The notes beneath the pieces are model-generated. The model worked only from the letters and a program-made list of their open reading frames with translations. It searched no databases and had not been told where the DNA came from. The translations under genes and the position numbers were made by a program. A DNA stretch of 64,000 nt from NCBI GenBank assembly GCA_965225955.1, contig CBDDBX010000027.1, forward strand, positions 9,057-73,056, given 5' to 3'. This stretch comes from Candidatus Aminicenantia bacterium (lineage in GTDB: Bacteria; Acidobacteriota; Aminicenantia; UBA2199). Below are positions 3,287-8,941 of the stretch, in pieces. Each line of letters starts with the position of its first letter. The stretch's first letter is position 1.

Positions 3287-4648
3287 TTATTTTGCCTGGT
3301 TCAGCAGGTTGCGATAGGTTTCTATCATTTCTGCTGTTGAAGTTGCAGCTTTTCTTTTCTTTGAATCTACAGATATATTTTCGTATTTGGATATAAGGTT
3401 CTGCATTGGCAGGTTAAGTTCTGCTGCTCCGGTTTTTATTCTGTCTTCAAGTATTGGAAGAGCAGCAAAACCAAGTGCTTCAATTTGTCTGCTTTTTTCA
3501 TCAGGTGATTCTGAAGAGTAGAGTATTGCATCTACTTTTTCAGGTAGTCTGGTTAAAAATCTATCCCAGCTGAACACCCAGCCTGATCCTGTTTCCCATT
3601 TTCCTGATACTGCTTTAAGATCTACAGCGGCAATTTTTTCAGCAGCTATTGCAAGAATATAATCTATCAGGCCATTCTCTTTAGTAGATTTGATTCTGTT
3701 CTTTATGGTTTCGAGAGCTTTGGGGCCCATTGCTACAATCTTTCTGAAACCATCATTATTGATATAGTCGTAAGGATTAGATGAATTCACATATCTGTTA
3801 ATATTAAATTCAAGTTCAGCAACGTGGTTCATTAGATCTCTGTCAGTTTCTGTATATGCTTTACGAAGTTCAGGGTCGCCACTCTCAACACTTAAGAAGT
3901 CAGAAGCATATTTACCGTTACTGTCGGTTACTGAAACCTCCAGCTCAAGACCGGAGTTTGAGGGCATCTGTGCTGAAGTGGAACTCTCTGTTCCTCCATC
4001 TATTGTGTCTTCGTATCTATTTGAGATCATCCAGCTGTATGTGTATGGCGGAACTCCGTTTTTGACTCTTACACTCCAGATCTGAGTAGTGTTTGGAGCT
4101 GCTCTGTTTGGGCCACGGATTTCAGCTGTCATACTCTTATAGTAGACTTTGACTTTTGCCCCGTAACCGGCTCTCTGCTGAGTGTATGGGTAGTTATACA
4201 ACTTGTGAGTGTAGTAGGTATTGTATGGGTCCCATGAATTGTGCTGCAGAAGGTTCAGGCCGCCGCATTTAGCCTGGCAGGCAGAAGAGCTTATCACTTT
4301 ACTGAAATGCCCAATGCTGTTTGTTGTTCCATAAGATATGATTTTTGCATAATGCCCATATGTTCTGTAACCTTTACTACTCATATAGGTGTTAACCTGA
4401 TTACTTGTAGGATTACTGCTTCCCCATGGCCATACCCACTGGTTTGTAATGCCAATAGAGTATGCAAGGCAGTTATAAGTGCCTGTACAGGGCCCAAGAT
4501 ATGACCAGGTGGTGCAGAAACTGTTGTAAAATTCCGTTGGGGTACCGTTATAGTCTGAAGGCTTGCATAACTGCTGCCCATAAGTATTGCCTGTTAAAAA
4601 CAGAAAAGTTATTAACAGAAAAATGGTAGCTGAAAATTTTTTAGACAT
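3287..4648 (-). CDS. Secreted multidomain protein of unknown function (signal peptide; Cys/His-containing N-terminal domain; PKD/Ig-like 'GVPPYTYSW' motif; helical C-terminal domain).
   Basis: 453 aa. N-terminus MSKKFSATIFLLITFLFLTGNTYG is a typical Sec signal. The YNCLAYSIG ... GHYAKI / IGHFSKVI spacing resembles papain-like/CHAP-type Cys-His hydrolases (weak). The gene sits between two REP clusters. Confidence 0.5.
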   Translation of the reverse strand: MSKKFSATIFLLITFLFLTGNTYGQQLCKPSDYNGTPTEFYNSFCTTWSYLGPCTGTYNCLAYSIGITNQWVWPWGSSNPTSNQVNTYMSSKGYRTYGHYAKIISYGTTNSIGHFSKVISSSACQAKCGGLNLLQHNSWDPYNTYYTHKLYNYPYTQQRAGYGAKVKVYYKSMTAEIRGPNRAAPNTTQIWSVRVKNGVPPYTYSWMISNRYEDTIDGGTESSTSAQMPSNSGLELEVSVTDSNGKYASDFLSVESGDPELRKAYTETDRDLMNHVAELEFNINRYVNSSNPYDYINNDGFRKIVAMGPKALETIKNRIKSTKENGLIDYILAIAAEKIAAVDLKAVSGKWETGSGWVFSWDRFLTRLPEKVDAILYSSESPDEKSRQIEALGFAALPILEDRIKTGAAELNLPMQNLISKYENISVDSKKRKAATSTAEMIETYRNLLNQAK

Positions 4649-4979
4649 TTGTCCTCCTTTCCCGCATGTTTTGAAAAACTAATAATCTCACAGCAGGATT
4701 TTGCTAAATATTTACCATTAAAACCATTGTATAAGATCCAGAAGAATTGTTCAAAGAATATGAAGATCAATAACTTTGCAGGTGCCAGGCATGCCAAGCC
4801 CTTGCTACCTTTTATTCAGGCGTGCAGGGGAGTGAGAGTCAATCTTGCAGATTCGGAGGATGCCGATTTTATCATAATAATGCATGGGTCAGGCATGCCT
4901 GACACCCTACACAATCATTGTATTACAAGACTTTACAGACCTGTTAAATAATAAGACACACCCAGGAATTTATCATTTT
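4649..4979. repeat. REP/BIME-like cluster B, including a P1 REP copy (gggtcaggcatgcctgacaccctacac at 4886..4912).
   Basis: Contains a 16-nt perfect palindrome gtcaggcatgcctgac plus a flanking CTAC. Shares the 'ggcatgccaagcccttgctaccttttattcaggcgtgcagggg' module with clusters A, C and D. Confidence 0.8.
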
Positions 4980-5498
4980 TTATAATAGTGGTGAATTCAT
5001 CTGATCTGTATCCCAATTTTTAGGATTATTGATTATGTATTCCCGGATAATATTTAATTCCCGGTCATTCCTTATGACTCTTTCCCAATAGTTACGCTGC
5101 CAAATTTTTGTTTTATCCCCTGAATTCATTTCATTTATTTTTCTGGTAACAGTTGATTTGAAAGACCCTATAATTGTAGATAATGATTGTTTAGTGGGTA
5201 ATATGCGAGAATGTAGGGGCTTGCCATGGCACGCCCCTGGAGATACTGTCATACAGATTATGCCGTGTACGTGATTTGGCATTACTATAAATTTATCGAG
5301 GGAGATATTTGAAAAATGGTTGGGGATTTCATTCCAGATAGAAAAGGCGATTTTCCCATACTGGCTTAATGACATTCTGTTATTGATGATATTGCCAAAA
5401 TAATGTTTTTTCTCATGTGTACATATAGTTACATAGTATGCACCAGCAGATGAATAATCCCTCTGGGGTAATCTGATTGATTGTCTGTTATGTTGCAT
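4980..5498 (-). CDS. REP-associated tyrosine transposase (RAYT; IS200/IS605 TnpA-like Y1 HUH enzyme).
   Basis: 172 aa. HUH motif in 'MPNHVHGIICM'; catalytic Tyr context 'IWQRNYWERVIRND'; size and motif order typical of RAYT/TnpA_REP. Flanked on both sides by identical P1 REP palindromes (4886..4912 and 5662..5688). Confidence 0.8.
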   Translation of the reverse strand: MQHNRQSIRLPQRDYSSAGAYYVTICTHEKKHYFGNIINNRMSLSQYGKIAFSIWNEIPNHFSNISLDKFIVMPNHVHGIICMTVSPGACHGKPLHSRILPTKQSLSTIIGSFKSTVTRKINEMNSGDKTKIWQRNYWERVIRNDRELNIIREYIINNPKNWDTDQMNSPLL

Positions 5499-5938
5499 TG
5501 TATATTTTGTTAATATAAAAAATATATGTTATTTGGAGTGATTAATCAAGAAGAAAATTTAAGAATAAATGCAGAGATCTTTGCGTGTGATCTTGTTGTA
5601 ACACCATATTAGAGGATAACGAATGCAGTTCAAGGGGAAGTGTTGTGTTGTTATGTTGCATGGGTCAGGCATGCCTGACACCCTACACGTCATTGTATTA
5701 AAAGGCTGTACAGATCTGTTAAATAATAACTGTACGGCTGATTAAAGGATTGCTGAATTGTGGTTGGGTAGGGGCTTGGCATGCCACGCCCTTGCTACCT
5801 TTTATTCAGGCGTACGGGGGTAATATAAGCAGTTAAAAAATTGGTTTGACCTATTAAATGGGCGCATACTCCGTTTGATTGGTTACGGCAATACTGTTTT
5901 ATATATTAGGTTTGTTTTTCAGATACCATTTGTGAGGG
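5499..5938. repeat. REP/BIME-like cluster C, including a P1 REP copy (5662..5688) and R2/R3 modules (5771..5885).
   Basis: Direct sequence identity to modules in clusters A, B, D and E. Confidence 0.8.
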
Positions 5939-6412
5939 TTACTGTTTTTGTTTGAGAGCCAGAAGTTCTTCTACGTCAAGTTTATCTTTTGTTCTGTTAA
6001 CAAGCCTCTTAGCTTCTATCAGTTCATCCATTCCAAGGATTCTGATTTTAAGGTTATCTACTACATCTTCAACTATATTGTTAAAATATTGAGCTGTTTT
6101 TTCTGTAGAGATACTGGTTATTATATCGATTGCATTTGGCTCTGCTCCAAGGTGAATAGCAGCACCTTCTTTAGTAAAAACTTCCGGGTCAATTCCAGCA
6201 TTTCCAAACCCGAAATCCGTTAACGCAATCATGACTTTTTCTGCGTTTTCTCTATTGGGGTTTATAAGAATATCAAAGTCAAATGTTGCTCTCATGTAGC
6301 CATAATAACTGACTGCATATCCGCCACAGACGGCATAATCTACATTATATTCATTAAAGAGCTCTATCAGCTCCTTCATATCATTTGTCAGTTTCAGCAT
6401 TGTCAAAGTCAA
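5939..6412 (-). CDS. Nucleotidyltransferase-fold protein (Pol-beta superfamily; AbiEii/DUF1814-like 'GG..x..R.T.DFD' motif). Putative toxin/effector of a two-gene module.
   Basis: 157 aa. 'VCGGYAVSYYGYMRATFDFDILI' fits the hG[GS]-x(9-13)-DhD nucleotidyltransferase signature. Its start overlaps the stop of the upstream 62-aa ORF. Embedded between REP clusters. Confidence 0.5.
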   Translation of the reverse strand: MTLTMLKLTNDMKELIELFNEYNVDYAVCGGYAVSYYGYMRATFDFDILINPNRENAEKVMIALTDFGFGNAGIDPEVFTKEGAAIHLGAEPNAIDIITSISTEKTAQYFNNIVEDVVDNLKIRILGMDELIEAKRLVNRTKDKLDVEELLALKQKQ

Positions 6413-6569
6413 GTTTGCGGATTTTTACTATTTTTTCGATTGGTTTGTTCCATGTACCCATGCGTTTTGCTAATAGGAGCATACGTTCAGGACCGGTCAT
6501 CTTGAGAATCTCTTCACGGCGGATCTGATCCTGATCTTCCACTCTGGCGATTTTTACAACCTTTTCCAT
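6381..6569 (-). CDS. Small hypothetical protein (62 aa), operonic partner of the nucleotidyltransferase; candidate antitoxin or regulator.
   Basis: Overlaps the 5' end of the NTase ORF by ~30 nt (or abuts it if the NTase starts at Met12). Charged, helical composition. No recognisable family. Confidence 0.35.
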   Translation of the reverse strand: MEKVVKIARVEDQDQIRREEILKMTGPERMLLLAKRMGTWNKPIEKIVKIRKLDFDNAETDK

Positions 6570-7357
6570 GTGTTAAATATATAATGCAGGGGAGTAGGAG
6601 TCAATCTTGCAGATTCAGGAGATGTCGATTTTGTTTTATTTCCGCATGGGTCAGGCATGCCTGACACCCTACACAATCATCAGGCGGTGATTTGACAGAA
6701 ATTATTACTGTTATCTGAAAAGGACTGTAAAAATTAAAAATTGACGCGCAATATTAATAAATTGTAGGGGCCTGGCATGCCACGCCCTTGCTACCTTTTA
6801 TTCAGCCGTGCGGGGGTAATAAGCAGTTAAAAAATTGGTTTGACCTGTTAAACGGGCGCATACTCCGATACGCCCCTACAAACCGCTTCTCTTATTATCA
6901 ATCGGGGATTGTTTAATAATGTTTTGATTCTAATCTTTATGTTTATTCGCGTGTATTTGCGTCTTTTTTGGCGTCCATTCGCGGTTAATGCTGATTTTTA
7001 AACCGTTCGGGAATTCTGTTTGTCTTATTTTAAGGCGTGCGGGGAGATAAACATCTGATAAATTGGTTTGACCTGTTAAACGGGCGTATACTCCGTTATG
7101 GTGGAACCATAACTCCGATACGCCCCTACAAATCTCTCCTGTATATCAAATTTTGCAGGGCACGGCATAATCTGAAAATTGTACAATGTGTTTCTTATGA
7201 TTGGGTAGGGTGTGGTTGATTTATTCGTGTGTATTTGTTTTTATTGGCGTGTGTTGACGTTCGGGTATTTGTTTGGTGTTTATTTGTGTGCATTGGTGGT
7301 TCCTTCTGTGTTATGTTTCGGGTTTCTGGTATACTTTCGGATTATTATGGAGGAGTT
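6570..7357. repeat. REP/BIME-like cluster D: P1 copy at 6649..6675, an R3 short form at 6837..6880, an R3 long form at 7065..7133, and the module 'ttattcgcgtgtatttgcgtcttttttggcg...cggttaatgctgattt'.
   Basis: The modules repeat nearly verbatim at 9125..9235 and 9340..9440. The 5' leader of the C69 dipeptidase gene is built from these modules. Confidence 0.8.
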
Positions 7358-8941
7358 ATGTCAATTAAGAATTTTTTGATTGGAGGGCTTTTATCTGCCC
7401 TTGTTATGACACCTGTTTTTGGTGAGGATGATGCTTGTACTACTATTACAGTTGGTAAGAAGGCTTCAACTGATGGTTCTGTTATGACTTCACACACCTG
7501 TGATTCAAGAACCACAAGAACATGGATAGATATTGTGCCTGGAAAGAAGCATAAACCCGGTACAATGAGAAAGGTTTATGGTTCAACTGAGAGAACTGTC
7601 AGTGCAGACAACTTATCAGCAAGAAAGCTGAGAGGTGAGATTGCTCAGCAGGCAAGAACCTATAAGTATTTCAACTCTGCTCTGCCTTTTATGAATGAGA
7701 ATCAGGTTGGTATTGGTGAAGCTACTTTTGGTGGCAAAAAAGAGATGAAAAGTGATAACGGACTCATCGACTACAGGGAGCTTAACCGCCTTATGGCTGA
7801 GAGAGCTACTTCTGCAAGAGATGCTATCAGAGTTGCTGATGAGGTAACTAAGAAGTATGGTTATATCTCCGGTGGTGAGTGCTTCACTATTGCTGATACT
7901 AAAGAGGTGTGGCATCTTGAAATTGTTGGCCCTGGTAAGGGTAAAAAAGGTGCTGTATGGGTTGCTCAGAGAGTACCGGATGATCATGTTAGTGTAAATG
8001 CAAACGCTTCAAGAATCAGAGAAGTAAAGACTAATGATAAAGAGAACTTCATGTATTCAGAGAATGTCTTCTCAGCTGCTGAAGAGGCTGGTCTCTGGAG
8101 TAAATCAAGTGGTAAAACATTTGAGTTCTGTTATGTTTACGGTTCAAGAAGAAGTATGGCTTCAAGAAGAAGAGAGTGGAGGGTATTTGATCTCCTGGCT
8201 CCTGGTCTTAAACTAGATCCTAATGGAGAGAATTTTCCTTTTTCAGTAAAACCTGAAAAAAAGGTTGCCCCTTCAGATATTATGAGAATCTTCAGAGATA
8301 CTTATGAAGATACACCTTTTGATATGACCAAATATATGCTGGTTCAGGAGAAGGACGATAAAGGAAAACTTACAGGTAAGTTTGTAAAGAGTCCTTATGC
8401 TAACCCTTTTATGCACTACGATATGATGCCTCTCTTTAAAGTCAATGGTGGTTGGAATGAGATGGGGGAGAGATGTATTGCAAGATACTACTGTACTTAT
8501 GTTACCGTAATTCAGCTGAGAGACTGGCTCCCTAATGAGATCGGTGGTCTTACATGGTTTGGTCTTGATAATACAGCAACCACTTCATATGCTCCTCTCT
8601 ACGCAGGTATGACATCTGTTCCCCAGAGTTACAGAATCTGCGGTCGTCCCGGCTTTAACAGAGATAGTGCATGGTGGGCTTTTAACCGTGTTGCTGACCT
8701 TGCTGCTCAGAAATGGGGCTATATGAGAAAAGATTGTAAGAAGGTCTGGAGTGTTTATGAGAAAGAGGCCTTTGATAAACAGGCTGATATTGAAAAAGAG
8801 GCACTGCGTCTTCATAAAAAAAGTAAAAAGAAAGCATCTAAATACCTCAACAAGTACAGTAACGACTGGATGAACAAACTGGTTAAAGCGTACTGGAAAC
8901 TTGGAGATGATCTCTGGAGTAAATACACAGGAAAATTCTAA
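7358..8941 (+). CDS. Peptidase C69 family dipeptidase (secreted; Cys nucleophile right after the signal peptide).
   Basis: 'ACTTITVGKKASTDGSVMTSHTCD' matches the C69 N-terminal nucleophile region. Signal peptide MSIKNFLIGGLLSALVMTPVFG. GGAGGAG RBS 6 nt upstream of the ATG at 7358. The longer ORF-track start at 7229 reads through repeat sequence and is rejected. Confidence 0.8.
   Translation: MSIKNFLIGGLLSALVMTPVFGEDDACTTITVGKKASTDGSVMTSHTCDSRTTRTWIDIVPGKKHKPGTMRKVYGSTERTVSADNLSARKLRGEIAQQARTYKYFNSALPFMNENQVGIGEATFGGKKEMKSDNGLIDYRELNRLMAERATSARDAIRVADEVTKKYGYISGGECFTIADTKEVWHLEIVGPGKGKKGAVWVAQRVPDDHVSVNANASRIREVKTNDKENFMYSENVFSAAEEAGLWSKSSGKTFEFCYVYGSRRSMASRRREWRVFDLLAPGLKLDPNGENFPFSVKPEKKVAPSDIMRIFRDTYEDTPFDMTKYMLVQEKDDKGKLTGKFVKSPYANPFMHYDMMPLFKVNGGWNEMGERCIARYYCTYVTVIQLRDWLPNEIGGLTWFGLDNTATTSYAPLYAGMTSVPQSYRICGRPGFNRDSAWWAFNRVADLAAQKWGYMRKDCKKVWSVYEKEAFDKQADIEKEALRLHKKSKKKASKYLNKYSNDWMNKLVKAYWKLGDDLWSKYTGKF

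Follow-up and report, generated by a model that had tools for sequence, protein, structure and literature searches.

The window, which is the whole stretch of 64,000 nucleotides analysed here (Candidatus Aminicenantia bacterium, assembly GCA_965225955.1, contig CBDDBX010000027.1, positions 9,057 to 73,056), carries on its minus strand two co-oriented, overlapping genes, of which the upstream one encodes a protein of 62 amino acids and the downstream one a small nucleotidyltransferase (NTase). An initial annotation had listed two open reading frames (ORFs) at 6381..6569 and 5939..6412, both of which are in the ORF list on the minus strand, and had interpreted them as a compact operon of the toxin-antitoxin (TA) or abortive-infection kind. 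NTase toxins of the MenT/AbiEii type have mainly been studied in Mycobacterium tuberculosis and in streptococci, together with large COG5340 antitoxins or with the rare MenA1. By comparing both proteins and their gene order with sequence, structure and genome collections, we found the pair to be strictly conserved far beyond this genome, and we consider it fairly probable that it constitutes a bicistronic TA module of the MenAT1 type. The features of the pair are as follows.

6381..6569, minus strand: small ORF with ATG start, 62 aa, the coordinates including the stop codon, candidate antitoxin
5939..6400, minus strand: NTase gene with ATG start at 6400, 153 aa, candidate toxin (minimal MenT1-like nucleotidyltransferase)
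6381..6400, minus strand: 20 nt in which the last codons of the small ORF and the first codons of the NTase gene overlap out of frame, read from the sequence
6272..6325, minus strand: NTase motif I, GGYAVSYYGYMRATFDFD, residues 26-43, from the translation
5975..6010, minus strand: C-terminal motif of the NTase, KRLVNRTKDKLD, from the translation, the invariant columns and the alignment with MenT1

The two genes and their products

The NTase can also be read from a TTG at 6412, which gives the ORF 5939..6412 of 157 aa. Since the N-termini of NTase homologues follow the pattern M-[IL]-x-[LM]-T-x-D-M-K and a 153-aa database protein (P0001) is identical to the window NTase, both of which fit the ATG at 6400, we take this ATG as the true start. 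The NTase gene therefore overlaps the small ORF by 20 nt out of frame, which suggests translational coupling of both genes. Elsewhere, the overlap measures 4 nt (ATGA) in the closest relatives and 47-62 nt in one subfamily. The G+C content of the module region (0.36-0.37) is slightly below that of its flanks (0.40-0.43), an Rfam search of positions 4500-7400 returned no RNA family and no intrinsic terminator was found in the module region.

The peptide CGGYAVSYYGYMRATFDFDIL, quoted in the initial annotation, is indeed present in the NTase, its residues 26-43 being encoded at 6325..6272. This segment contains G26, G27, R37, T39, D41 and D43 and has the form of the Pol-beta NTase motif I, hG[GS]-x9-13-Dh[DE]h, in which G26, G27, D41 and D43 are conserved among 75 homologues. 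D41 and D43 correspond to the metal-binding carboxylates, and T39 is the counterpart of the phospho-acceptor T39 of MenT1 (PMC10435456, PMC11375011). This threonine, located two residues ahead of the first catalytic aspartate, is invariant in the family alignment and is aligned to MenT1 T39. Near the C-terminus K131, R136, D139 and D142 are likewise invariant in the family, R136 being aligned to an arginine of MenT1. In the profile alignment, T39, D41, D43, K131, D139 and D142 fall on T39, D41, D43, K137, D149 and D152 of MenT1, and conservation of each of the six among the 75 homologues is 90% or higher, up to invariance. In MenT1 itself, toxicity depends on D41, K137 and D152, and the antitoxin induces auto-phosphorylation at T39 (PMC10435456, PMC11375011).

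With the NTase family profile, MenT1 is recovered along its entire length at an E-value of 3.6e-9, followed by LnuA as next best match (0.0065), and the fold of the window NTase resembles that of the solved MenT toxins. As the outcome that would speak against a TA module, the initial annotation had named a housekeeping or resistance NTase accompanied by an unconserved small ORF; the top match is instead a toxin, and the small ORF is retained alongside the NTase in other genomes, as described below. None of the Pfam models is reached at threshold by the window NTase, and the sub-threshold matches are to generic NTase families, namely NTP_transf_5 (E 1.2e-4), MdcG, DUF6036 and Aminoglyc_resit. 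The AbiEii model (PF08843) does not match at E<=1, and membership of the Pfam AbiEii family was accordingly dropped. DUF6036 (PF19502) matches at E 0.021 and 15.0 bits, below its gathering threshold of 23.6 bits. When 75 aligned relatives were searched at E<=0.01, DUF6036 was found in 63, DUF2204 in 50 and AbiEii in 18 of them. Because the window protein itself scores 15.0 bits where 63 of its 75 relatives match, it is, as judged from these profile scores, a divergent outlier of the DUF6036 family. The profile match to MenT1, together with the shared catalytic residues that are required in MenT1, further places it in the MenT/AbiEii superfamily as a minimal and divergent member, outside the Pfam AbiEii model. 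The AbiEii/DUF1814-like assignment of the initial annotation thus holds for the Pol-beta motif and at the level of the superfamily; the Pfam family itself is unmatched at threshold.

The 62-aa protein has no relative in Pfam, NCBIfam or the PDB, in line with the initial description of a partner belonging to no recognised family, and a search with this single sequence returned nothing, as no words were shared. The family was recovered by collecting the ORFs upstream of NTase homologues and by an iterated hidden Markov model (HMM) search seeded with the window protein. Its members measure approximately 57-75 aa and come in three sequence flavours with one common core, 'h-h-h-x-S...(M/K)TPxER-h..h..h(R/Q)...G...(R/K)-V-x-h', in which a beta-like hydrophobic stretch and an acidic segment precede '(M/K)TPxER', which opens a helix, followed by a glycine and a final '(R/K)-V-x-h' strand. 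With the family profile, 5354 clusters were obtained at E<=1e-3, all of them 'hypothetical' and none with a Pfam domain. The window protein is soluble and highly charged. Its AlphaFold2 (AF2) model is partly helical (residues 18-23, 26-39 and 41-58) with a confidence score (pLDDT) of 61 and has no fold match in the PDB, and no fold is claimed for it. A weak model is the behaviour expected from an antitoxin that folds on binding, which is no proof of such a role. A collection of approximately 15 billion proteins contains the NTase but no exact copy of the 62-aa sequence, so that the small gene was evidently left uncalled in the source annotation.

Conservation and co-divergence of the pair

A word-indexed search with the NTase yielded 95 homologues of approximately 150 aa, nearly all of them unnamed. 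An HMM search of 1.84 billion representatives, clustered at 50% identity, returned 30,524 proteins at E<=1e-3 (10,219 at E<=1e-10 and 796 at E<=1e-30). The nearest relatives are encoded in metagenome-assembled genomes (MAGs) of Victivallales and other Lentisphaerota. We fetched 80 further loci of NTase homologues from GTDB species genomes, and the comparisons below cover 89 related loci; the fetched loci span Victivallales and other Lentisphaerota, Acidobacteriota, Calditrichota, Fermentibacterota, Armatimonadota, Planctomycetota, Bacteroidota and others.

In 82 of the related loci, which represent more than 15 phyla, the iterated HMM detected a homologous small ORF immediately preceding the NTase gene, and the compact two-gene operon proposed initially is thus a conserved arrangement. 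Among the 10,043 ORFs that a six-frame translation of all 89 loci gives, the HMM matched 83 in the upstream-adjacent position and only 2 elsewhere, one of these in a second tandem module and the other being an in-frame fusion. With 83 adjacent matches against 2 others among so many ORFs, the pairing is far beyond chance. There is no third conserved gene: the only conserved neighbour is the ORF of approximately 60 aa, and the next most frequent neighbour family is present in 6 of 84 loci. Neither a COG5340 (AbiEi-type) gene nor a HEPN gene adjoins the NTase gene of the window.

Both partners have diverged together. Over 75 distinct pairs, the pairwise identities of the small protein and of the NTase are correlated with r = 0.84 (Mantel p = 0.001), the small protein diverging faster (mean identity 28%, compared to 44% for the NTase). 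In 7 of 245 NTase homologues (P0077, P0090, P0292, P0301, P0320, P0334 and P0352), the small domain is fused in frame at the N terminus, and these may be genuine fusions or frameshift artefacts within the overlap. The genomic contexts of related modules vary widely, and plasmid-borne copies adjoin IS6 insertion sequence (IS) elements, a RES toxin gene or an AbiEi/AbiEii pair.

Two single loci deserve mention. A Bacteroidetes MAG contig (L072) carries two paralogous modules in tandem, at 2326-2920 and 3379-3976 and thus approximately 460 nt apart, each consisting of a small ORF and an NTase gene with an out-of-frame overlap of 56-62 nt. On a plasmid of Fibrella sp. (CP155474, 233-4408; L091), a 635-aa protein annotated as 'DUF6036 family nucleotidyltransferase', the N-terminal part of which matches our query, adjoins a canonical AbiEi/AbiEii pair; a 75-aa ORF upstream of it bears no resemblance to the small-protein family.

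Relation to MenAT1 and alternative functions

The closest known system is MenAT1, the pair MenA1/Rv0078B and MenT1/Rv0078A of Mycobacterium tuberculosis, with PDB entries 8an4, 8an5 and 8rr5. The two systems agree in the fold and the catalytic residues of the NTase, in the order of the genes and in the size of the partner. MenA1, a 68-aa protein that lacks a DNA-binding domain and was predicted to be disordered, is encoded ahead of menT1 (PMC10435456); the window partner, at 62 aa, is likewise encoded upstream, overlaps the NTase gene, has no domain that could be found and has a partly helical model of low confidence. The partner had initially been called unconventional for this group of NTases, a qualification contradicted by MenT1 itself, whose antitoxin is equally small. 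The resemblance between the partners is one of function, not of homology: when a small-protein profile built from 47 proteins was compared with all PDB chains, including those of the MenAT1 complex 8an5, no match had an E-value better than 0.09 and none was MenA1. The systems also differ in that the NTases share 23% identity and that the window NTase (153 aa, compared to 196 aa for MenT1) is without the C-terminal tail of MenT1. Moreover, Pfam puts the relatives of the window NTase in DUF6036 and DUF2204 rather than in AbiEii, and the 5354 clusters of its partner family stand against 21 reported menA1 genes (PMC10435456).

Other relatives are more remote in organisation. In the AbiEi/AbiEii (COG5340-DUF1814) systems and in MenAT3 and MenAT4, toxins of approximately 290 aa are combined with COG5340 antitoxins of approximately 200-300 aa that possess a winged-helix DNA-binding domain; the window has a 62-aa partner instead and no COG5340 gene. 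The Ser/Thr auto-phosphorylation site is T39 in MenT1 and S78 in MenT3, and its predicted equivalent in the window NTase is T39. DUF6036 (PF19502), DUF2204 (PF09970) and TM1012 (PDB 2ewr) are uncharacterised nucleotidyltransferases for which no function or partner has been described, and a literature search on DUF6036 and DUF2204, also as TA systems, gave nothing relevant.

By analogy with MenAT1, the NTase would be the toxin of the pair and would add nucleotides to the 3'-CCA ends of tRNA, resulting in a block of translation. The 62-aa protein, made from the upstream gene and probably translationally coupled to the NTase, would act as its cognate antitoxin by binding directly to the NTase and occluding the active site, and it could possibly drive an inhibitory auto-phosphorylation of the invariant Thr39. 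A wider proposal, which we put forward tentatively and hold to be rather doubtful, is that the pair represents a very large, phylum-spanning and so far unrecognised TA family, in which a new family of antitoxins of approximately 60 aa, unrelated to MenA1 and without DNA-binding domain, controls a minimal MenT-like tRNA NTase of 150 aa through binding and induced auto-phosphorylation of Thr39. If true, antitoxin-triggered self-phosphorylation of NTases would be general as a mechanism, having evolved repeatedly with small partners that are not related to one another. As a more speculative extension, the overlaps of 47-62 nt and the recurrent fusions might reflect programmed frameshifting that yields a self-inhibited fusion isoform.

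Several other functions have to be weighed against a MenAT1-type module. The NTase might be a small-molecule nucleotidyltransferase, conferring lincosamide or aminoglycoside resistance or modifying another metabolite, with the small protein as accessory or regulatory subunit and no TA function at all. We regard this as very unlikely, as the profile similarity to ANT(2'')-Ia and LnuA is much weaker than that to MenT1, LnuA in the profile alignment lacks the Lys/Arg of the C-terminal MenT-type motif, and such enzymes come without a comparable small overlapping partner gene. A second possibility is a reversed polarity as in type VII systems, in which the NTase neutralises by modifying or sequestering the small protein, which would then be the effector or a regulated factor. 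NTase antitoxins do exist, since MNT in the MNT-HEPN systems AMPylates HEPN; the assignment of the toxic partner in the window pair follows from analogy, and the well-conserved Thr/Ser in 'TPxER' of the small protein could in principle accept a nucleotide. This threonine, however, is a lysine in the closest relatives ('KMKGSER'), and 'TPxE' resembles a helix N-cap. Whereas the HEPN partner of type VII systems carries an Rx4-6H motif, the soluble, highly charged 62-aa protein has no HEPN match, no such motif and no membrane segment. Furthermore, an upstream, faster-evolving and partly disordered partner suits the role of antitoxin, and the NTase aligns with a proven toxin rather than with MNT, which makes a reversed polarity highly improbable.

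Rather unlikely, finally, is a non-toxic regulatory or RNA-repair pair, in which an NTase acting on tRNA or other RNA 3' ends is tuned by the small subunit with neither addiction nor growth arrest. The housekeeping neighbours of the pair in the window and the lack of a defence signal (see below) would agree with it, and so would the observations that MenT2 is not toxic and that MenT1 is not toxic in Escherichia coli (PMC10435456). Against it, the patchy distribution over phyla, the variable context, the tandem paralogues, the plasmid copies beside IS elements or other TA genes and the fast evolution of the partner are marks of selfish TA modules and not of housekeeping genes.

Whichever its function, the window module belongs to a far larger uncharacterised group, with approximately 10,000 NTase representatives and more than 5,000 unannotated partner clusters, in which both families span Lentisphaerota, Acidobacteriota, Calditrichota, Cyanobacteria, Bacteroidota and other phyla. 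If the MenAT1-type reading holds and the pair is a working TA system, its NTase would be the smallest toxin of the MenT type known, its partner would define a new antitoxin family, and the pair would offer a simple system for asking whether antitoxin-induced auto-phosphorylation of threonine is general. The module is therefore of interest to TA specialists, while being no surprise in principle, and it is of use for genome annotation, as the small gene is overlooked by gene callers.

Repeats, promoter and flanking genes

The pair is embedded in an array of repetitive extragenic palindromic (REP)-type repeats with a gene resembling those for REP-associated tyrosine transposases (RAYT), of which the following features were recorded.

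4980..5498, minus strand: RAYT-like gene, from Pfam Y1_Tnp and NCBIfam
5643..5876, no strand assigned: composite block of REP-type repeats, shortly after the NTase stop codon, from the repeat search
6585..6870, no strand assigned: composite block of REP-type repeats, shortly before the small ORF, from the repeat search
4778-4954 and 7041-7140, no strand assigned: further repeat blocks, from the repeat search
6576..6604, minus strand: promoter-like site TTGACT-17-TATATT, 10/12 matches

What the initial annotation called a REP island is present as four repeat blocks and a RAYT-like gene. The gene scores 30.8 bits with Pfam Y1_Tnp (cutoff 23) and 63 bits with NCBIfam REP_Tyr_transpos (E 2.6e-17; cutoff 80). 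The blocks are built of two mutually inverted units, each a GTAG plus a palindrome, and of several common spacer modules, and the number of repeat-block matches expected by chance is 0. Copies of the same unit lie approximately 990 nt apart, with the RAYT-like gene in one interval and the NTase module in the next, the block at 5643-5876 separating the two. No copy of the repeats occurs elsewhere in the 64-kb window, and the REP hairpins are no more stable than shuffled sequence.

The repeat cassette had been read as a sign of a defence or addiction module, which the related loci contradict. As neither a REP sequence nor a RAYT gene is found in any of the 89 loci, and the REP sequence has no exact match among the JGI metagenome contigs, the REP/RAYT setting is a local circumstance outside the system, and the idea of REP/RAYT as carrier of the module was rejected. 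The genes flanking the module encode a DUF7689 protein, a C69 peptidase, an M20 peptidase, a DUF1848 protein and MatE transporters, and because they are peptidases, transporters and DUF proteins, the neighbourhood is not a defence island. The role in defence or abortive infection that had been suggested receives no support from these neighbours, nor from PADLOC-DB, in which neither protein matches any family at E<=1, nor from a phage genome collection, in which no record holds a homologue. IMG/VR gave no support for a link to phages or defence either, and a fold search of BFVD returned uncharacterised proteins only, with TM <= 0.6.

The -10 hexamer of the promoter-like site ends 6 nt ahead of the ATG of the small ORF, and its -35 hexamer lies within the repeat module D3. 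No Shine-Dalgarno sequence is visible before the small ORF, and its mRNA may be leaderless and partly repeat-driven; the count of promoter-like sites in the region is not above that expected from shuffled sequence. The same module D3 (6585-6680, upstream of the small ORF) recurs at 4823-4918, approximately 180-270 nt upstream of the DUF7689 gene (3287-4648, minus strand) and on the same strand, so the repeats may serve as regulatory sequence for more than one gene.

Within the RAYT ORF (4980-5498, minus strand), a REP-like copy, TGTAGGGGCTTGCCATGGCACGCCCCTG, of repeat family D5 is located at 5212-5239, where it encodes 'SPGACHGKPLHS' just past the HUH motif 'HVHGII'. This copy possibly represents a REP that was inserted in frame into the gene, and such an insertion could explain why the NCBIfam RAYT match falls into two stretches and stays below its cutoff.
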